64,000 nucleotides of DNA from Escherichia coli (GTDB taxonomy: Bacteria; Pseudomonadota; Gammaproteobacteria; Enterobacterales; Enterobacteriaceae). Position numbers and translations under genes: made by a program. The stretch is from NCBI RefSeq assembly GCF_029227855.1, contig NZ_CP074356.1. One strand, given 5' to 3'. This document shows, in pieces, positions 1,500 through 58,235 of the stretch (its first letter is position 1; each line of letters begins with the position of its first letter). The notes under the pieces are model-generated. The model was not told where the DNA came from. It did not search any database and saw nothing but the letters and a program-made list of their open reading frames with translations.

Positions 1500-2236
1500 T
1501 GTTTTTTGGACTCCCTCATTATAATTACTGGTATTAACCAGCATGTGTAATCCCGGATTGGGACCCTGCACAGGCTCGGAGACTTTCTGCTGTCAGGTTA
1601 CTTTATCGTTACGTATTACTATCACCGACTTTATTTATTCTGGTGATTCAGACGATCACCTTATGTCGATTCGTACTGTGTCTCCCCTGTCGAGACACAT
1701 TATTCTTTCGCGACGCTCTTAAATTGTTAATTATTCTCATTACCAATAAAGAATCGTCTGGCGGTTGCCCGGAAAGTACCAAATGCGCTTCTTACTCGCC
1801 AATACATTTTGCAAAATTGTTAAGCAATTCTCTTTTATTGACCGTATCAGAATCTATAGCTTGCATCCATGTCTTAACAAACATCTTTCAATTCAATCAA
1901 ATAGAGATTGGTTAAGCATGTCTATCTTTTCTGATTACAGTTCCAGTAGTGAAATGCACAATAATTTAACAATTGATTATTATTTAGCACTTTCCTCTAC
2001 CAAAGGCAGTGGAATTACTAATATCATTTCAATTATTCTTCAGCAAGCCCAGGATTATGATGTGGCGAAAATAACATGATGGTGAGGAGAAGCAGTTAAG
2101 GAAATCCTTATAACCAACTGTAATTTGAGAAGAATATTTTCACCCATTCCTTTTGCTTTTGATAACTGCGCGGTAACAAAGTAAAAATAATGACGAAGTA
2201 AACGGAGCATGGCAGCTCCGTTTCATTTGAAAGGAA

Positions 2237-3360: not shown

Positions 3361-6036
3361 ATGGCTGTTACTAATGTCGCTGAACTTAACGCACTCGTAG
3401 AGCGTGTAAAAAAAGCCCAGCGTGAATATGCCAGTTTCACTCAAGAGCAAGTAGACAAAATCTTCCGCGCCGCCGCTCTGGCTGCTGCAGATGCTCGAAT
3501 CCCACTCGCGAAAATGGCCGTTGCCGAATCCGGCATGGGTATCGTCGAAGATAAAGTGATCAAAAACCACTTTGCTTCTGAATATATCTACAACGCCTAT
3601 AAAGATGAAAAAACCTGTGGTGTTCTGTCTGAAGACGACACTTTTGGTACCATCACTATCGCTGAACCAATCGGTATTATTTGCGGTATCGTTCCGACCA
3701 CTAACCCGACTTCAACTGCTATCTTCAAATCGCTGATCAGCCTGAAGACCCGTAACGCCATTATCTTCTCCCCGCACCCGCGTGCAAAAGATGCAACCAA
3801 CAAAGCAGCTGATATCGTTCTGCAGGCTGCTATCGCTGCCGGTGCTCCGAAAGATCTGATCGGCTGGATCGATCAACCTTCTGTTGAACTGTCTAACGCA
3901 CTGATGCACCACCCAGACATCAACCTGATCCTCGCGACTGGTGGTCCGGGCATGGTTAAAGCCGCATACAGCTCCGGTAAACCAGCTATCGGCGTAGGCG
4001 CGGGCAACACTCCAGTTGTTATCGATGAAACTGCTGATATCAAACGTGCAGTTGCATCTGTACTGATGTCCAAAACCTTCGACAACGGCGTAATCTGTGC
4101 TTCTGAACAGTCTGTTGTTGTTGTTGACTCTGTTTATGACGCAGTACGTGAACGTTTCGCAACCCACGGCGGCTATCTGTTGCAGGGTAAAGAGCTGAAA
4201 GCTGTTCAGGACGTTATCCTGAAAAACGGTGCGCTGAACGCGGCTATCGTTGGTCAGCCAGCCTATAAAATTGCTGAACTGGCAGGCTTCTCTGTACCAG
4301 AAAACACCAAGATTCTGATCGGTGAAGTGACCGTTGTTGATGAAAGCGAACCGTTCGCACATGAAAAACTGTCCCCGACTCTGGCAATGTACCGCGCTAA
4401 AGATTTCGAAGACGCGGTAGAAAAAGCAGAGAAACTGGTTGCTATGGGCGGTATCGGTCATACCTCTTGCCTGTACACTGACCAGGATAACCAACCGGCT
4501 CGCGTTTCTTACTTCGGTCAGAAAATGAAAACGGCTCGTATCCTGATTAACACCCCGGCTTCTCAGGGTGGTATCGGTGACCTGTATAACTTCAAACTCG
4601 CACCTTCCCTGACTCTGGGTTGTGGTTCCTGGGGTGGTAACTCCATCTCTGAAAACGTTGGTCCGAAACACCTGATCAACAAGAAAACAGTTGCTAAGCG
4701 AGCTGAAAACATGTTGTGGCACAAACTTCCGAAATCTATCTACTTCCGCCGTGGCTCCCTGCCAATCGCGCTGGATGAAGTGATTACTGATGGCCACAAA
4801 CGTGCGCTCATCGTGACTGACCGCTTCCTGTTCAACAATGGTTATGCTGATCAGATCACTTCCGTACTGAAAGCAGCAGGCGTTGAAACTGAAGTCTTCT
4901 TCGAAGTAGAAGCTGACCCGACCCTGAGCATCGTTCGTAAAGGTGCAGAACTGGCAAACTCCTTCAAACCAGACGTGATTATCGCGCTGGGTGGTGGTTC
5001 CCCGATGGACGCCGCGAAGATCATGTGGGTCATGTACGAACATCCGGAAACTCACTTCGAAGAACTGGCGCTGCGCTTTATGGATATCCGTAAACGTATC
5101 TACAAGTTCCCGAAAATGGGCGTGAAAGCGAAAATGATCGCTGTCACCACCACTTCTGGTACAGGTTCTGAAGTCACTCCGTTTGCGGTTGTAACTGACG
5201 ACGCTACTGGTCAGAAATATCCGCTGGCAGACTATGCGCTGACCCCGGATATGGCGATTGTCGATGCCAACCTGGTTATGGACATGCCGAAGTCCCTGTG
5301 TGCTTTCGGTGGTCTGGACGCAGTAACTCACGCCATGGAAGCTTATGTTTCTGTACTGGCATCTGAGTTCTCTGATGGTCAGGCCCTGCAGGCGCTGAAA
5401 CTGCTGAAAGAATATCTGCCAGCGTCCTACCACGAAGGATCTAAAAATCCGGTAGCGCGTGAACGTGTTCACAGTGCAGCAACTATCGCGGGTATCGCGT
5501 TTGCGAACGCCTTCCTGGGTGTATGTCACTCAATGGCGCACAAACTGGGTTCCCAGTTCCATATTCCGCACGGTCTGGCAAACGCCCTGCTGATTTGTAA
5601 CGTTATTCGCTACAACGCGAACGACAACCCGACCAAGCAGACTGCATTCAGCCAGTATGACCGTCCGCAGGCTCGCCGTCGTTATGCTGAAATTGCTGAC
5701 CACCTGGGTCTGAGCGCACCGGGCGACCGTACTGCTGCTAAGATCGAGAAACTGCTGGCATGGCTGGAAACGCTGAAAGCTGAACTGGGTATTCCGAAAT
5801 CTATCCGTGAAGCTGGCGTTCAGGAAGCAGACTTCCTGGCGAATGTGGATAAACTGTCTGAAGATGCATTCGATGACCAGTGCACCGGCGCTAACCCGCG
5901 TTACCCGCTGATCTCCGAGCTGAAACAGATTCTGCTGGATACCTACTACGGTCGTGATTATGTAGAAGGTGAAACTGCAGCGAAAAAGGAAGCCGCTCCG
6001 GCTAAAGCTGAGAAAAAAGCGAAGAAATCCGCTTAA
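3361..6036 (+). CDS. adhE: Bifunctional acetaldehyde-CoA/alcohol dehydrogenase AdhE
   Basis: 891 aa ORF beginning [27 protein letters not shown]-terminal aldehyde dehydrogenase plus C-terminal iron-containing alcohol dehydrogenase domains. Confidence 0.97.
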
Positions 6037-6061
6037 TCAGTAGCGCTGTCTGGCAACATAA

Positions 6062-6087
6062 ACGGTCCCTTCTGGGGCCGTTTTTTT
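6062..6087 (+). terminator. Rho-independent terminator downstream of adhE
   Basis: Hairpin ACGGTCCC-TTCT-GGGGCCGT followed by T7 run, 26 bp after adhE stop. Confidence 0.6.
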
Positions 6088-6338
6088 GTTTTACCCAAAG
6101 CAACTTTCCCATAAACCGACAGCATTTGCCTTCATCATATTTACGGCGATGTATAACGCCTACACACAGCGATATTGTACTTTACAGGTCACAAGTCAAC
6201 GTCACTGTAAAAGCGCTCTGTGAGGGGTATAGTGGCGTTAAAGAACTGTCGAGAAGGGTATATACACCGGATGAAGTGAGTAAAACGAACTGACAGGATA
6301 AAAGCGCCCTGCTCACCCTGTCAGTAAAGAAATTCTTA

Positions 6339-6956
6339 TTAATCGTGGCGATGCCTTTCCTGAATAGCCGTTAATGAGCCGACTTCTAACGCTTCTTTAT
6401 AGTGTTTACGGCATACAGAAACGTAGCGTTCATTACCACCAATAACCACCTGCTCACCTTCGTTATAAGGTCTGCCTGCTTGATCAAGACGCAGCACCAT
6501 GCTTGCTTTGCGGCCACAAAAACAGATGGTTTTTAATTCAACCAGTTTGTCGGACCATGCCAGTAAGTATTGGCTGCCAATAAATAACTCACCTCGAAAA
6601 TCGGTACGTAAACCATAACAAAGTACGGGTATATCGAGTTGATCGACAACCTCCGATAATTCATATACTTGTTGTCTGGTTAAAAACTGGCATTCATCAA
6701 CCAGTACGCAATGAATTGCCTGCTGTTCATGTTCCGCACGAATCTCATCAAATAATGATGAATTTTGGTTAAATAATTTTGCAGGCGATGACAAACCTAT
6801 ACGCGAGCTGACTTTCCCGGCACCAAAGCGATCATCAATTTCTGCCGTATATACGACAGTGCGCATGCCGCGTTCCTGGTAATTGTATGAAGATTGCAAC
6901 AATGCTGTAGACTTACCCGCATTCATTGCGGAATAGTAGAAATATAGCTGTGCCAT
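6339..6956 (-). CDS. tdk: Thymidine kinase
   Basis: 205 aa [29 protein letters not shown] with P-loop; recognised as E. coli Tdk. Confidence 0.95.
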
Positions 6957-7559
6957 CAGCCACAGGCCCTCAATGATATGAATTAAAGTTGGCTGGAGTT
7001 TATCATAATTCGTCAGTTTTTCAGCTCAACAGTATGCACAGAAGTGGTATATGCGTTCTCCCTTACGAAGCCTTGCATAATCCTTCTGAGCTATCATTAC
7101 AACTGCCTCGCTTGTTATAAGCGGGTAAATGACTGCTGGTAACTATTCACAATCTTTAACCTGTTGCGCAAGTAATAGCCCTCTGTTGACCTCCTGGAGA
7201 TAGTGCAATACTAAGTCCCTGCTCTTATTGCGACTGTTCTACTTTTCATCATTCGCTTAATAGGGAATTCTCGTAAACACGACTAATACAGAAGACTGAA
7301 AGGTCGTCAGCCTACGATAATCTCCCCATAAAATGTGACATGAATCAGGAAGTTTTAACCTCACGTGCTGCGAAATCATCGGCGCAAATAGGGCTATATG
7401 CCGCGTCTTTTCTGGCTAATTTTATGAAAAGATATTTATTGGCGGCACAAAATAAAGAACAATTTTGAATTCCTTACATTCCTGGCTATTGCACAACTGA
7501 ATTTAAGGCTCTATTATTACCTCAACAAACCACCCCAATATAAGTTTGAGATTACTACA

Positions 7560-7973
7560 ATGAGCGAAGCACTTAAAATTCTGAACAACATCCGTACTCT
7601 TCGTGCGCAGGCAAGAGAATGTACACTTGAAACGCTGGAAGAAATGCTGGAAAAATTAGAAGTTGTTGTTAACGAACGTCGCGAAGAAGAAAGCGCGGCT
7701 GCTGCTGAAGTTGAAGAGCGCACTCGTAAACTGCAGCAATATCGCGAAATGCTGATCGCTGACGGTATTGACCCGAACGAACTGCTGAATAGCCTTGCTG
7801 CCGTTAAATCTGGCACCAAAGCTAAACGTGCTCAGCGTCCGGCAAAATATAGCTACGTTGACGAAAACGGCGAAACTAAAACCTGGACTGGCCAGGGCCG
7901 TACTCCAGCTGTAATCAAAAAAGCAATGGATGAGCAAGGTAAATCCCTCGACGATTTCCTGATCAAGCAATAA
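7560..7973 (+). CDS. hns: Nucleoid-associated DNA-binding protein H-NS
   Basis: 137 aa [44 protein letters not shown] ... TWTGQGRTP; matches E. coli H-NS. Confidence 0.97.
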
Positions 7974-8000
7974 TCTTTTGTAGATTGCACTTGCTTAAAA

Positions 8001-8026
8001 ATCCCGCCATCGGCGGGATTTTTTAT
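8001..8026 (+). terminator. hns rho-independent terminator
   Basis: Perfect hairpin ATCCCGCC-atc-GGCGGGAT followed by TTTTTT. Confidence 0.7.
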
Positions 8027-8064
8027 TGTCCGGTTTAAGACAATTTAATAAGAATAAGCTATAA

Positions 8065-8776
8065 TAAATATCCTCCGGCATAGCCGGAGGTTTTTCAAAT
8101 GCGCCTATAAGGCTCTCTTACCAGCCGCGCCCTAACAGGCGCACACGATCTGACATTTGCATCCAACTTCGTTACTTACGGCCCGTAAACGGGCTGCCCG
8201 GATAGGGAATCGATAACTGCTCTCCCATTTTATCCTCTTCAAGCTGGTGCTTTATGTAATCCTGTATCTTCGCCGTGTTCTTACCCACCGTATCGACGTA
8301 GTACCCTCTGCACCAGAACTCCCTGTTCCTGTATTTGAATTTCAAATCACCAAACTGCTCGTAAAGCATCAGACTGCTTTTCCCTTTCAGATATCCCATA
8401 AAGCCGGATACGCTCATTTTGGGCGGGATCTCCACAAGCATATGGATATGATCTGCACAGCATTCAGCTTCCAGAATCCGTACACTTTTCCACTCACACA
8501 GCTTTCTCAAAATACTGCCTATTGCTCTACGCTTCTCTCTGTAGAACACCTGTCTTCGGTATTTTGGCGCAAAAACTATGTGATATTTACAGTTCCATCG
8601 GGTGTGCGCTAAGCTCTTTTCGTTCCCCATTGGGACCCCCTTTTGATTTCTTGTTTGACACTTGCAGTTGCCAGACCGCAAGGTGTTTTAACAAATCAAA
8701 AGGGGTTTTAATAACTGGCTTAAAGCTGAAAGCTTTCCGGAACCCCCAGCCTAGCTGGGGGTTTTCTGTGCACAAA
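8065..8776 (-). mobile_element. IS200 (IS200/IS605 family) copy 1, tnpA oriented on minus strand
   Basis: 712 bp unit repeated in direct tandem; contains Y1 HuH transposase ORF and terminal palindromes TCCTCCGGCatagCCGGAGG (8071-8090) and CCCCCAGCctaGCTGGGGG (8743-8761); boundaries ambiguous by +/-2 bp. Confidence 0.85.
8172..8630 (-). CDS. tnpA: IS200 transposase TnpA (Y1 HuH single-strand transposase), 152 aa from the internal ATG
   Basis: MGNEKSLAHTRWNCKYHIVFAPKYRRQVFY...HIHMLVEIPP (HxH motif) ...IQDYIKHQ (catalytic Tyr); ORF track's longer 169 aa version (8172..8681) starts at an upstream TTG. Confidence 0.88.
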   Translation of the reverse strand: MGNEKSLAHTRWNCKYHIVFAPKYRRQVFYREKRRAIGSILRKLCEWKSVRILEAECCADHIHMLVEIPPKMSVSGFMGYLKGKSSLMLYEQFGDLKFKYRNREFWCRGYYVDTVGKNTAKIQDYIKHQLEEDKMGEQLSIPYPGSPFTGRK

Positions 8777-9488
8777 TAAATATCCTCCGGCATAGCCGGA
8801 GGTTTTTCAAATGCGCCTATAAGGCTCTCTTACCAGCCGCGCCCTAACAGGCGCACACGATCTGACATTTGCATCCAACTTCGTTACTTACGGCCCGTAA
8901 ACGGGCTGCCCGGATAGGGAATCGATAACTGCTCTCCCATTTTATCCTCTTCAAGCTGGTGCTTTATGTAATCCTGTATCTTCGCCGTGTTCTTACCCAC
9001 TGTATCGACGTAGTACCCTCTGCACCAGAACTCCCTGTTCCTGTATTTGAATTTCAAATCACCAAACTGCTCGTAAAGCATCAGACTGCTTTTCCCTTTC
9101 AGATATCCCATAAACCCGGATACGCTCATTTTGGGCGGGATCTCCACAAGCATATGGATATGATCTGCACAGCATTCAGCTTCCAGAATCCGTACGCTTT
9201 TCCACTCACACAGCTTTCTCAAAATACTGCCTATTGCTCTACGCTTCTCTCTGTAGAACACCTGTCTTCGGTATTTTGGCGCAAAAACTATGTGATATTT
9301 ACAGTTCCATCGGGTGTGCGCTAAGCTCTTTTCGTTCCCCATTGGGACCCCCTTTTGATTTCTTGTTTGACACTTGCAGTTGCCAGACCGCAAAGTGTTT
9401 TAACAAATCAAAAGGGGTTTTAATAACTGGCTCAAAGCTGAAAGCTTTCCGGAACCCCCAGCCTAGCTGGGGGTTTTCTGTGCACAAA
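8777..9488 (-). mobile_element. IS200 copy 2, head-to-tail with copy 1
   Basis: Second 712 bp unit, about 99% identical to copy 1 with at least five substitutions (e.g. 8290 vs 9002, 8403 vs 9115, 8474 vs 9186); same terminal palindromes at 8783-8802 and 9455-9473. Confidence 0.85.
8884..9342 (-). CDS. tnpA: IS200 transposase TnpA, copy 2
   Basis: Protein identical to copy 1 TnpA; the nucleotide differences between copies are synonymous or outside the ORF. Confidence 0.88.
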   Translation of the reverse strand: MGNEKSLAHTRWNCKYHIVFAPKYRRQVFYREKRRAIGSILRKLCEWKSVRILEAECCADHIHMLVEIPPKMSVSGFMGYLKGKSSLMLYEQFGDLKFKYRNREFWCRGYYVDTVGKNTAKIQDYIKHQLEEDKMGEQLSIPYPGSPFTGRK

Positions 9489-14282: not shown

Positions 14283-14367
<85 letters not shown>

Positions 14368-14401
14368 TCTCAAGCATTACCTCAAAATTTGAATTACCCC
14401 T

Positions 14402-14486
<85 letters not shown>

Positions 14487-14542
14487 TCACTTTTCAAAAG
14501 TCCGTGAACTCTCAAACGAATCCGCAATTAAATATTCTGCCC

Positions 14543-14629
14543 ATGCGGGGAAGGATGAGAAGCTTCGACCAAGGTGCGACTCGGGCGCCAGCGAGAAAGC
14601 GTTGCCGCAGGCAACGACCCGAAGGGTGA
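14543..14629 (+). CDS. tpr: Protamine-like small protein Tpr encoded in the tyrT operon 3' repeat region
   Basis: Short arginine-rich [31 protein letters not shown] downstream of tyrV, followed by a partial repeat of the tRNA 3' end (TCCTTCCCCCACCACCATCACTT at ~14650). Confidence 0.5.
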
Positions 14630-14751
14630 AGCGCGCAGCGCTGAGTAATCCTTCCCCCACCACCATCACTTCCTGTAAATACTCAAAACCTGTTACTCCG
14701 AGCTAATTCTACCCAATGGCACCGCGTTTACCGGACCTACAATATCCTCCC

Positions 14752-21882: not shown

Positions 21883-21905
21883 AAAGGATAATCAAATATT
21901 AAGAT

Positions 21906-30506: not shown

Positions 30507-30796
30507 CAGTTATATCTCCTCCGATGACAGAAATCGGGGGAGATAATATAAATTCCTGCTTATTGTATTTCTTCATACTACCTGAACAGGTTGTTAATCA
30601 GAATTGCGAGCCTGTACCAGAACCTGCACGAAACCACTGCAACAGCTGTTGAAAAGCCGGAATGTACTCTTTATTGCAAACATTTCAGGGATGAAGTGAA
30701 GATGAATTGAGACGTAGTATCCACACCAAGCCGGCGTTATCCGGTGAGGCGCAATGTTGCGGGGGCTTTATCCCTGGTGGCATTGGTTGCTGGAAA

Positions 30797-30862
30797 GAGA
30801 AAACCCCCGCACGTTGAGAGGTAAAACCTGACAACAGAACGGGGGCTAATCTTGAACCATCA
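30797..30862 (-). ncRNA. rdl: Rdl antisense RNA (type I antitoxin), approximate coordinates
   Basis: Minus-strand hairpin-rich segment ending in CGGGGGUUUUCUCUUU terminator, antisense to the ldr 5' leader; position by analogy with known LDR architecture. Confidence 0.45.
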
Positions 30863-30911
30863 ACAATTCAAGAATAGCCGCAAAATGTTGTCATTACAAC
30901 AAGGCGGCTAT

Positions 30912-31019
30912 ATGACGCTCGCGCAGTTTGCCATGATTTTCTGGCACGACCTGGCAGCACCGATCCTGGCGGGAATTATTACCGCAGCGATTGTCAGCTG
31001 GTGGCGTAACCGGAAGTAA
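30912..31019 (+). CDS. ldr: Ldr type I toxin peptide (35 aa)
   Basis: MTLAQFAMIFWHDLAAPILAGIITAAIVSWWRNRK. Confidence 0.9.
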   Translation: MTLAQFAMIFWHDLAAPILAGIITAAIVSWWRNRK

Positions 31020-31332
31020 GGTGAAAACGGGCGTCAGGCTGCCGTGATGGCAATATGCGCCCGAAACCGGCCGCAGGTGTAACAGCCTGCGGCCTTTTTT
31101 GTCTTTATCTCTTCCACAAGTAAATATTGGCAACCCGAGCTGGAAGCATCATCCAGAGCACTCATGAAACGACTGTAACAGCTGTTGAAAAACCGGAATG
31201 CACTCTTCATTGCATACATTTCAGGGATGAAGTGAAGATGAATTGAGTCGTAGTATCCACACCAAGCCGGCGTTATCCGGTGAGGCGCAATGTTGCGGGG
31301 GCTCTATCCCTGGTGGCATTGGTTGCTGGAAA

Positions 31333-31398
31333 GAGAAAACCCCCGCACGTTGAGAGGTATAACCTGACAACAGAACGGGGGCTAATCTTGAACCAGAA
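31333..31398 (-). ncRNA. rdl: Rdl antisense RNA copy 2, approximate coordinates
   Basis: Same segment as in unit 1, ~535 bp downstream. Confidence 0.45.
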
Positions 31399-31445
31399 CA
31401 ATTCAAAATAGCCGCAAAATGTTGTCATTACAACAAGGCGGCTAT

Positions 31446-31553
31446 ATGACGCTCACGCAGTTTGCCATGACTTTCTGGCACGACCTGGCAGCACCGATCC
31501 TGGCGGGAATTATTACCGCAGCGATTGTCAGCTGGTGGCGTAACCGGAAGTAA
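31446..31553 (+). CDS. ldr: Ldr type I toxin peptide (35 aa), variant copy
   Basis: MTLTQFAMTFWHDLAAPILAGIITAAIVSWWRNRK (A4T and I9T relative to copy 1). Confidence 0.9.
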   Translation: MTLTQFAMTFWHDLAAPILAGIITAAIVSWWRNRK

Positions 31554-31700
31554 GGTGAAAACGGGCGTCAGGCTGCCGTGATGGCAATATGCGCCCGAAA
31601 CCGGCCGCAGGAGTAACAGCCTGCGGCCTTTTTTGTATCCGGCCCCATGAAAAAAGCCTTAACGCAGAACGCTAAGGCTTTAGTTTTCAAGCAAAAAAGA

Positions 31701-55132: not shown

Positions 55133-55146
55133 CTTTACTGTATATC

Positions 55147-55189
55147 GAGCAATGCCATTACGTGCATAAAATTGGCATTGCTCTTTCTT
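55147..55189 (+). terminator. treA rho-independent terminator
   Basis: 11 bp stem GAGCAATGCCA / TGGCATTGCTC followed by TTTCTT. Confidence 0.65.
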
Positions 55190-55397
55190 CATCACGAAAT
55201 ACCAAATACCACTCTTTCTACGGTCTATGCCTTTATTTTCTTTTATTAGAGAAGATTTTAATTTTATTTTATCAACTTGTTAATCATTACACCTCTATTT
55301 ATATTTTCCCCCACTCCCCATTCTCCCTGACAATTTTCTTGTGGAACAAAGTGTTATTTAAGAAACAAGCAAATCATTCTGTCTCTTTAGACAAATT

Positions 55398-55444
55398 TTG
55401 ACATCAAACATGATCTTTTTCGCTATATGTGTAAGTATATAGCG
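55398..55444 (+). promoter_or_regulatory. Candidate promoter (-35 TTGACA at 55398-55403) with overlapping ModE-type operator palindrome CGCTATAT-N8-ATATAGCG (55421-55444)
   Basis: Palindrome fits the ModE consensus as I recall it (CGnTATATA-N6-TATATAnCG) at 17 of 18 specified positions; lies 25 bp upstream of the ATG of the first island gene. Confidence 0.6.
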
Positions 55445-55468
55445 GTTTTAATTATCAGGATATTACTT

Positions 55469-56491
55469 ATGTCACTAACCAGACGGAGGTTTACACAGAT
55501 TCTTGCGTCGACATTGTTCCTGCATCATCTGCCGTCCTTTGCACTATCAGTCAAATTCTGGGCCTCACTGACGCTTCCCGAAGCCCAAAACATTACACGC
55601 ATCGTCAGCGCAGGCGCGCCCGCCGATTTACTATTGCTGGCTGTCGCGCCAGAAAAAATGGTCGGTTTTTCCTCTTTTGATTTTGCCCGTCAGGCATTAA
55701 TTCCATTGCCAAAGCACATTCGCCAGTTCCCCAGGCTGGGACGACTCGCCGGGCGCGCCAGCACACTCTCGCTGGAAGGGCTTATGGCGTTACATCCCGA
55801 TTTGGTCGTTGATTGCGGCAATACGGATGAAACCTGGATCTCCCAGGCACGGCAGGTTAGCGAACAGACACAAATACCCTGGTTATTGCTTAACGGGAAA
55901 CTGGAACAATCAGCAGAACAGTTAACAACGCTTGGCAAAACGTTAGGCGAAGAGCACCGCACCGCAGAACAAGCCAATCTCGCCAGCCGCTTCGTTGGTG
56001 AAGCTCAGGCATTCGCCACCTCACCCGCCGCTAACCTCAGCTTTTATGCTGCGCGCGGTCCTCGAGGGCTGGAAACGGGCTTACAGGGTTCGTTGCATAC
56101 CGAGGCGGCGGAATTATTAGGTTTGCACAACGTCGCGCAAATAGCCGATCGCCACGGTCTGACACAGGTTTCCATGGAAAATCTCCTGCGCTGGCAGCCG
56201 GATATTATTCTGGTTCAGGAGGCCGTTACTGCAGATTTTATTCGTCGTGATCCTCTCTGGCAGGGCGTGAAAGCGGTTGCGGAACAACGCATCTTATTTT
56301 TAAGTGGCCTGCCCTTTGGCTGGCTGGATGCCCCGCCGGGAATCAACCGTCTTCTGGGATTACGCAGACTTCACGCCTGGCTGGATCCCGCCATCAATCG
56401 CCAGTTTAAAAGTGACATGCAGCATTACGCCCAACTGTTCTGGCATTGCCTATTAAGTGACGCCGACTATCAAAAATTGGTGGCGAGCTAA
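55469..56491 (+). CDS. Periplasmic substrate-binding protein, TroA/FecB/BtuF-like (class III), with twin-arginine signal
   Basis: MSLTRRRFTQILASTLF... signal with RRRF motif; ~340 aa; architecture of metal-chelate/cobalamin binding proteins; ORF track version starts 14 codons upstream. Confidence 0.8.
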   Translation: MSLTRRRFTQILASTLFLHHLPSFALSVKFWASLTLPEAQNITRIVSAGAPADLLLLAVAPEKMVGFSSFDFARQALIPLPKHIRQFPRLGRLAGRASTLSLEGLMALHPDLVVDCGNTDETWISQARQVSEQTQIPWLLLNGKLEQSAEQLTTLGKTLGEEHRTAEQANLASRFVGEAQAFATSPAANLSFYAARGPRGLETGLQGSLHTEAAELLGLHNVAQIADRHGLTQVSMENLLRWQPDIILVQEAVTADFIRRDPLWQGVKAVAEQRILFLSGLPFGWLDAPPGINRLLGLRRLHAWLDPAINRQFKSDMQHYAQLFWHCLLSDADYQKLVAS

Positions 56492-57471
56492 TGAGAACCG
56501 TAAACGGATGTATTTTGCTGCTGGCAGCTATCAGTATCACTTTTGCCGCCGTAAGTGGGGCTTATCATCTCGATATACAGCAACTGCTGGCGCTCATTCT
56601 TCGTCAAGAAAATGTTCCTGTGCAGGAACAAATTGTCTTCTGGCAAATCCGCGTGCCGCGTATTCTTGCTGCGCTGTTTCTGGGCGCGGCGCTGGCAGGG
56701 GCCGGAACCACCTATCAGGGAATGTTCCGTAATCCCTTAGTGTCACCGGATATTTTAGGCGTCTCCGCCGGTGCCGGACTTGGTGCCTGCGCGGCAATCC
56801 TGTGGGGATTATCCATTGTTTACATCCAGCTGTACGCATTTTGCGGCGGGCTGATGGTGGTCGCGGGCGTCTGGTTGATTACGCGTCGGGTGACCCGCCA
56901 CGATCCGATCTTAACCCTGGTGCTGGTAGGCATTGCGTTAGGAACGTTGTGCGGAGCGGGGATATCGCTAATAAAAACGCTGGCCGATCCTTACACCCAG
57001 TTACCGTCAATTACCTTCTGGTTGCTGGGGGGGCTGTCCACCGTGACCTTACGCGATCTCTGCTATGCTGCACCGATCATTCTCATAGGCTCCTTGCCCC
57101 TGTTTTTTCTCCGCTGGCGTATGAATTTACTCACGCTTTCCGACGACGAAGCCCGTTCGCTGGGACTGAACGTGACACGTCTGCGCTTTGGATTAATTGT
57201 CTGCGCCACACTAATCACCGCCAGCACGGTAGCAATAGCGGGCATAATTGGTTGGGTCGGCCTGGTCGTTCCGCACATTGCCCGCTTGTTGACCGGTCAT
57301 AACCATCAGCAGCTGTTGCCCATGGCAATGTGTACTGGCGCGATTCTGCTCCTGCTTACCGATACGCTGGCACGCAGCATTGGAACAACAGAAATCCCAC
57401 TTGGCATTCTGACCGCTTTTGTTGGTGCACCGTTTTTCCTGTTTTTGTTGTTACGCGGAGGTCGCCAGTGA
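56491..57471 (+). CDS. ABC transporter permease, FecCD/BtuC family
   Basis: 326 aa polytopic membrane ORF whose start overlaps the upstream stop; glycine-rich TM segments typical of FecCD permeases. Confidence 0.82.
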   Translation: MRTVNGCILLLAAISITFAAVSGAYHLDIQQLLALILRQENVPVQEQIVFWQIRVPRILAALFLGAALAGAGTTYQGMFRNPLVSPDILGVSAGAGLGACAAILWGLSIVYIQLYAFCGGLMVVAGVWLITRRVTRHDPILTLVLVGIALGTLCGAGISLIKTLADPYTQLPSITFWLLGGLSTVTLRDLCYAAPIILIGSLPLFFLRWRMNLLTLSDDEARSLGLNVTRLRFGLIVCATLITASTVAIAGIIGWVGLVVPHIARLLTGHNHQQLLPMAMCTGAILLLLTDTLARSIGTTEIPLGILTAFVGAPFFLFLLLRGGRQ

Positions 57472-58226
57472 CTTTGCTTGCCGTCCGTCATGCGTCTCTG
57501 GGTTACTCCCGCCATCCGGTGCTACGCGACGTGTCCTTCACCCTGTCGCAAGGAACAATTTGTTGTCTGTTAGGAGCCAATGGTTGCGGCAAAACCACAC
57601 TCATGCGCTCCATTCTTGGCGTTATACCGTTATTAAAAGGCGAGATCTTACTGGATAGCCTCCCTGTGCAGACACTCAGCCATCGCCAGCGCGCGCAGGC
57701 TATTGCCTGGGTGCCGCAGGCGCACGACGGCATTTTTGCTTTTAGTGTGCTGGATATGGTGTTGATGGGCCTGGCCCCCACCATAGGCGCTTTTTCCGTT
57801 CCCGGTAAGCAAGAACGCCTGAAAGCAACGGAGCAACTGGAAAAGCTGGGCATTTTGCATCTGGCGACACGACGCTGGAATACACTTAGCGGCGGTGAAC
57901 GTCAGCTGGCTTTAATCGCCCGTGCACTCGTCCAGCAACCGCGCTTGTTATTACTGGATGAGCCTGCCTCCAGCCTCGATTTCGGTCATCAGATCCAACT
58001 ACTGGACACGCTGGCGCAGCTCAAAAATAACGGCATGACAATGCTAATGTCGACTCATCATCCGCTCCATGCCAACGCCATTGCCGACAGCATTATCCAG
58101 GTAGAGCCAGATGGACGAGTAACACAAGGCTTACCGACCGAACAGTTAACAACGAACAAACTGGCTGCCCTGTACCGGGTTTCTGCCGACCAGATTCATC
58201 ATCACCTCTCTGCAATTAGCCACTAA
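57468..58226 (+). CDS. ABC transporter ATP-binding protein (FepC/FecE/BtuD-like)
   Basis: GTG start overlapping the permease stop (GTGA); Walker A GANGCGKTT, ABC signature LSGGERQ, Walker B LLLLDEP; 252 aa. Confidence 0.85.
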   Translation: MTLLAVRHASLGYSRHPVLRDVSFTLSQGTICCLLGANGCGKTTLMRSILGVIPLLKGEILLDSLPVQTLSHRQRAQAIAWVPQAHDGIFAFSVLDMVLMGLAPTIGAFSVPGKQERLKATEQLEKLGILHLATRRWNTLSGGERQLALIARALVQQPRLLLLDEPASSLDFGHQIQLLDTLAQLKNNGMTMLMSTHHPLHANAIADSIIQVEPDGRVTQGLPTEQLTTNKLAALYRVSADQIHHHLSAISH

Positions 58227-58235
58227 GGAACAATC

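Follow-up and report, generated by a model that had tools for sequence, protein, structure and literature searches.

The main question raised by this locus is why the convergent genes adhE and tdk stand close together in one E. coli strain and far apart in another, and which of the two arrangements is the older one. We addressed it in a 64,000-nucleotide stretch of E. coli DNA (contig NZ_CP074356.1 of assembly GCF_029227855.1), referred to in its entirety as the window. An earlier note on this DNA had placed about 300 bp between the adhE and tdk stop codons and had put the K-12 spacer at some 1.3 kb, with an IS4-like insZ remnant in it. By ORF coordinates the distance in the window is exactly 302 bp (Table 1). 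The ends of tdk and adhE lie at 1294144 and 1295446 in MG1655 (NC_000913.3), where the spacer of 1301 bp is annotated with 'insertion sequence:ISZ' and the pseudogene insZ (b4573), so that the statement on K-12 proved accurate. The reading that we favor, and hold to be very probable, is that the 302-bp spacer is ancestral, that a hairpin within it is a preferred target of the IS4 subgroup and has been hit independently in other lineages, and that the lineage of the window has gone unhit.

Table 1. Features of the adhE-tdk region of the window, the nearby IS200 transposase genes, and the insertions found in other strains, placed at the corresponding window positions
Feature	Window position	Strand or orientation	Details
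adhE ORF	3361..6036	+	891 aa
adhE-tdk convergent intergenic spacer, no insertion sequence	6037..6338	.	302 bp; ORF coordinates and MG1655 alignment
adhE intrinsic (Rho-independent) terminator, predicted	6060..6087	+	AAACGGTCCC-TTCT-GGGGCCGTTT, then T-run
Unoccupied insertion point	6066..6077	.	bases duplicated around ISZ/IS4 in other strains
tdk terminator-like hairpin	6293..6325	-	CTGACAGG...CCTGTCAG, then TTCGTTTT
tdk ORF	6339..6956	-	205 aa
IS200 Y1 transposase ORFs	8172-8681 and 8884-9393	-	one per IS200 copy
K-12 MG1655: ISZ, 989 bp	6067-6076	co-oriented with adhE	10-bp duplication, CCCTTCTGGG
UPEC129: IS4 with 281-bp internal deletion, 1145 bp	6066-6077	left end toward adhE	12-bp duplication, CCCCTTCTGGGG
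WB61: intact IS4, 1426 bp	6067-6077	opposite orientation	11-bp duplication, CCCTTCTGGGG
Strain 20: intact IS4, 1426 bp	6066-6077	opposite orientation	12-bp duplication, TCCCTTCTGGGG

Pairwise alignment with the MG1655 tdk-adhE region bears out the claimed difference, since the K-12 spacer is not one of ~300 bp. The two spacers are collinear and ~93% identical apart from a single insertion in K-12, and the junctions, read directly, account for the difference in length as a 989-bp ISZ element plus a 10-bp target duplication. ISZ ends in imperfect terminal inverted repeats of 18 bp (CAATGCCGATCAGTTAAG / CAATGCCGTTCACTTAAG), which place it at 1294417-1295405 of NC_000913.3. The annotated ISZ of MG1655 (980 bp, from 1294426) is 9 bp short of the end set by the inverted repeat and the 10-bp duplication. 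In K-12 the element is flanked by the direct repeat CCCTTCTGGG, of which the window has one copy, at 6067..6076. A single copy in the window and two around ISZ are the signature of transposition into a site like that of the window.

The spacer of the window is thus not of the K-12 type, with ISZ between tdk and adhE, and blastn searches with ISZ and IS4 against the whole window returned no DNA of either element. The same spacer, 100% identical, is present in E. coli CFSAN018748. An Rfam scan of window positions 5900-7600 gave no known RNA family, only three sub-threshold chance matches, all over the terminator hairpin, and a promoter scan of the spacer gave one weak match that did not rise above the shuffled background. 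Spacer ORFs of 45, 55, and 44 aa, starting with TTG or GTG, were taken as chance.

What, then, does the insertion point look like when it is empty? A terminator scan placed a hairpin at window positions 6060-6083, beginning 24 nt past the adhE stop codon, with a 10-pair stem (6 G-C pairs), the 4-nt loop TTCT and, after the stem, TTTTGTTTT. The RNA fold has an energy of −19.1 kcal/mol (z = −4.5), and none of 200 shuffled sequences folded as well. This element has a GC-rich stem-loop and a T-run, follows the stop codon, and keeps its position in relatives, all as expected of an intrinsic terminator, and it would be expected to terminate adhE transcripts. ISZ entered at the apex of the hairpin. 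What is duplicated is the loop together with the upper stem, and the adhE terminator is therefore split in K-12, where the left-junction sequence folds no better than its shuffles and lacks a U-run. The second hairpin, on the tdk side, folds at −20.5 kcal/mol (z = −3.6), and its inner part was found by the terminator scan as well. It lies between tdk and the insertion sequence target, so that an insertion at 6067 leaves it intact, and it is indeed kept in K-12.

At the nucleotide level only the first 35 bp are common to ISZ and IS4 (34 of 35 aligned bases), and the transposase remnant of ISZ is ~31% identical to the IS4 protein InsG. On these two values the reading of ISZ as a decayed IS4 was rejected, and ISZ stands as a separate member within the IS4 subgroup. 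It lacks ~390 bp relative to an 87%-identical copy of 1405 bp on pColV-PU1 (NZ_CP042245.1), which is the most complete relative of ISZ among the matches examined. That copy lies downstream of a TolC-family gene, is itself pseudogenized by a frameshift and an internal stop, and has its own 10-bp duplication, CGGCATAGCG, between AAATAT and TTTTTT. An intact ISZ transposase gene was not found among the matches examined, and ISZ is reported never to have transposed in mutation-accumulation lines (PMC5009759).

ISZ in K-12 is one of several elements in this hairpin. Target duplications were read directly from the junction sequences of four strains (Table 1); they measure 10, 11, 12, and 12 bp, and all fall within positions 6066-6077, a target that is unoccupied in the window. 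The first 983 bp of the shortened element of UPEC129 are 97.7% identical to intact IS4, and ATCC 11775, the type strain, has this junction too. Because the elements, their orientations, or the lengths of their duplications differ, at least four independent insertions into this one adhE hairpin have taken place in E. coli.

The states of the site were counted in 5426 complete E. coli genomes by queries that span the junctions. The empty site, with its hairpin uninterrupted, was found in 2196 genomes and the ISZ junction in 1886, while IS4 was found with its left end toward adhE in 1138 and in the opposite orientation in 190. Together the four states cover 5410 of the 5426 genomes, and genuine IS4 sits at the adhE hairpin in 1328 of them. 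It is now apparent that ~60% of complete E. coli genomes have an insertion sequence in the adhE terminator and that 40% have an empty site. The earlier note had also taken the compact spacer as consistent with a lineage other than K-12. It is consistent with that, yet with 2196 of 5426 genomes in the same state, the empty site alone is a poor lineage marker, which says 'not K-12' and little more.

Is the empty site the original one? To judge this, a degenerate C-terminal AdhE pattern, which is independent of the sequence 3' of adhE, was run over one genome per species, and 27 enterobacterial loci were obtained. A hairpin with its T-run stands intact directly after adhE in all 27. In 24 of them (among which are E. 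albertii, the cryptic Escherichia clades with Escherichia sp. E1V33 and MOD1-EC7003, Salmonella diarizonae, Citrobacter, Klebsiella, Pseudocitrobacter, and two loci labeled E. coli) tdk is convergent, at ~110-330 nt from adhE, with no insertion sequence between; the three remaining loci, from E. whittamii, S. arizonae, and a Citrobacter, have the intact hairpin, and there the sequence compared ends before tdk. The hairpin bases at window positions 6062-6087 are identical in E. whittamii (56 of 56 nt compared) and in MOD1-EC7003. Because the outgroups are empty, the hairpin is intact, and the sequence duplicated in K-12 is present in a single copy, the compact arrangement is, by this comparison, the ancestral one, as the earlier note had proposed.

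The empty site could instead be secondary, if an ancestor with ISZ or IS4 had lost its element, either in a precise excision by recombination of the flanking 10-12 bp repeats or when an empty allele of another lineage replaced the occupied one homologously. Occupancy of the site in 60% of genomes would suit such a history. E. coli recombines, so alleles at the locus can be exchanged, and the spacer is 93% identical to that of K-12 against ~98% for the flanking genes, which allows for a different local ancestry. We nevertheless regard a secondary empty site as improbable. The hairpin bears no scar and at positions 6062-6087 matches E. whittamii and MOD1-EC7003 base for base, every outgroup is empty, and precise excision of insertion sequences is rare. 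No occupied ancestor is required, allele replacement would merely restore the ancestral sequence, and the extra steps that are needed would have left no trace.

The preference behind these repeated insertions was examined in 12 intact IS4 copies at 10 other loci, on chromosomes and plasmids, for which empty targets were reconstructed; the sample is small, it consists of resident copies and not of de novo events, and it may thus be biased by selection toward intergenic terminators. The duplications at these ten loci are 11-14 bp long. A centered AAA-N18-22-TTT is present at 5 of the 10, and the other 5 have an A-run or a T-run on one arm. Seven of the ten target stretches fold at −14.8 kcal/mol or lower, and in six of those the duplication caps the hairpin (rraA/zapB, pdxK/crr, the 3' end of ogrK, the 3' end of finO, pCUPSTF6, and the terminal hairpin of IS200). 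At ygeA, the seventh, the duplication is not capped by predicted helices. Two of the ten sites are intragenic and weakly palindromic. The sampled targets agree with the IS4 consensus AAA-N20-TTT, which was reportedly proposed by Mayaux and coworkers in 1984; galT and the pheST attenuator are the classical sites. The adhE hairpin fits this consensus, with AAA at 6060-6062, N20 at 6063-6082, and TTT at 6083-6085.

Within the 64 kb of the window only about four loci combine AAAN20TTT with a strong hairpin, and this scarcity helps to explain why one site has been used repeatedly. One more AAAN20TTT hairpin is the hns terminator, at window positions 7997-8024. IS200 has the terminal hairpin AACCCCCAGCCTAGCTGGGGGTT, which lies at 8741-8763 and at 9453-9475, and in CFT073, strain 124, and NQ3 an intact IS4 lies within the same sequence, with the duplication CAGCTAGGCTG. 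Since the two IS200 hairpins match a sequence that is occupied by IS4 elsewhere, they are further unoccupied IS4 targets in the window. In the literature searched, no description of the adhE-tdk site as an IS4 hot spot was found.

That ISZ and IS4 share the site through one ancient insertion, its interior later swapped by recombination with IS4-family copies and no target preference involved, is a reading for which the near-identical 35-bp left end of the two elements would offer a recombination anchor, and we reject it as very improbable because the four duplications differ in length and boundaries and the elements lie in both orientations, which is not expected from end-anchored replacement, because this 35-bp end is also found on the pColV-PU1 copy, whose site is unrelated, and is therefore native to the element, and because ten unrelated loci show the same preference of IS4 for hairpins.

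Independent insertion into an ancestral hairpin would then proceed as follows. The left end of the ancestral spacer is the predicted adhE terminator, a GC-rich hairpin between an A-run and a T-run, and sites of this shape are the preferred target of IS4-subgroup transposases. We infer that the transposase reads the A/T arms together with the palindrome; its cuts lie ~10-13 bp from each other, one on either side of the hairpin apex. Separate lineages of E. coli have had this hairpin hit independently, by ISZ (in K-12, now a deleted pseudogene element of 989 bp) or, in either orientation, by IS4. The lineage of the window was probably never hit or, less likely, lost its insert precisely, and its terminator is intact in either case.

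What might the insertions do to adhE? ISZ and the deleted IS4 run in the direction of adhE and leave the residual hairpin with no U-run after it, so adhE transcripts would be expected to read into the transposase pseudogene. Co-oriented insertions would, in this case, abolish termination of adhE. The right end of IS4 in reverse orientation has an 11-bp hairpin followed by CUCUUUUUC, and it resembles a replacement terminator. The two widespread copies, both co-oriented, are dead; the reverse copies examined (WB61 and strain 20) are intact. This difference may reflect age alone, or also selection against read-through. With three lineage-wide insertions, recent ones in addition, and 60% of genomes affected, the adhE terminator may be among the most heavily used IS4-subgroup targets of E. 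coli, with an occupancy that is perhaps not neutral; we put this forward as a doubtful proposal. If it were true, the anaerobic adhE transcript, which is strongly expressed, would enter the transposase gene; this would explain why the two widespread copies are dead, and the 3' end of adhE mRNA, its stability, or convergent transcription into tdk could differ between occupied and empty strains.

The empty site of the window is an ordinary and already understood presence/absence polymorphism of insertion sequences, and both ISZ and the target selectivity of IS4 were known before. What the present analysis adds is that the insertion point is the adhE terminator, that this terminator is a recurrent target of the IS4 subgroup, and how frequent the four states are. 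Since the hot spot follows directly from known IS4 behavior, its interest is low. For the window itself, the record is that the strain is not K-12 and that its adhE terminator is intact. K-12 is atypical with respect to the ancestral state, so statements drawn from it on the adhE 3' end or the spacer cannot be carried over to the 40% of E. coli that have no insert here. As a lineage marker the four states (empty, ISZ, old IS4, and recent IS4) are cheap and could be scored by PCR, and the locus is a clean natural case of two IS4-subgroup elements that reuse one terminator hairpin independently.

Compared with K-12 1232001-1304000, the whole window is 97-99% identical and shows several differences in mobile elements. 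The expectation that such content would differ from K-12, with no insZ and a gain of IS200, was borne out: the window lacks ISZ and IS5U and has IS200 in two tandem copies. IS5U (K-12 1299499-1300693, between ychE and oppA) has its empty site at window positions 1984-1987, where the alignment blocks show the 4-bp overlap that an empty IS5 site should give. The two IS200 copies, at 8063-9486 between hns and galU, are 100% identical, lie head to tail with a period of 712 bp, and are absent from K-12. A perfect tandem dimer of this kind is unusual and could be either a real duplication or an effect of assembly.

The remaining differences concern other loci. A 6.7-kb segment at 55134-61871 has no K-12 counterpart, and K-12 has instead ~620 bp on the ycgY/ymgE side; the segment codes for a periplasmic binding protein, a FecCD-type permease, an ABC ATPase, a methyltransferase, a QRPTase (ModD-like) protein, and a TonB-dependent receptor. 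The ldr/rdl toxin-antisense array at 30617-31636 lacks ~534 bp relative to K-12, which would fit two units in place of three. In the narK-narG intergenic region, at 21900-21905, the window lacks 127 bp of K-12 (1279350-1279476) that lie inside the annotated narS sRNA. The tyrT/tyrV/rttR repeats at 14349-14671 align with K-12 in several registers, so that their number or arrangement differs.

Three known systems can be set beside this locus. The first is ISZ/insZ of K-12 MG1655, which occupies the same locus; the window is its exact empty-site counterpart, with one copy of CCCTTCTGGG, and differs in that ISZ DNA is present there and absent here. The second is the class of Rho-independent terminators between convergent genes, which the adhE hairpin resembles in its GC-rich 10-bp stem, 4-nt loop, and U-run, and the A-run upstream of the hairpin gives it the shape of a bidirectional terminator. 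It differs from that class, as far as sequence describes it, in that tdk has a hairpin of its own, so that the adhE hairpin need not serve both genes. The third is IS4 itself (insG; 1426 bp) and its target sites. Members of the IS4 subgroup are described as having -AATR- ends, direct repeats of 10-13 bp, and a strong specificity for the arms of the target (PMC2266710). The adhE site matches these properties and, in other strains, holds real IS4 copies with duplications of 11-12 bp; unlike in those strains, it stands empty in the window.
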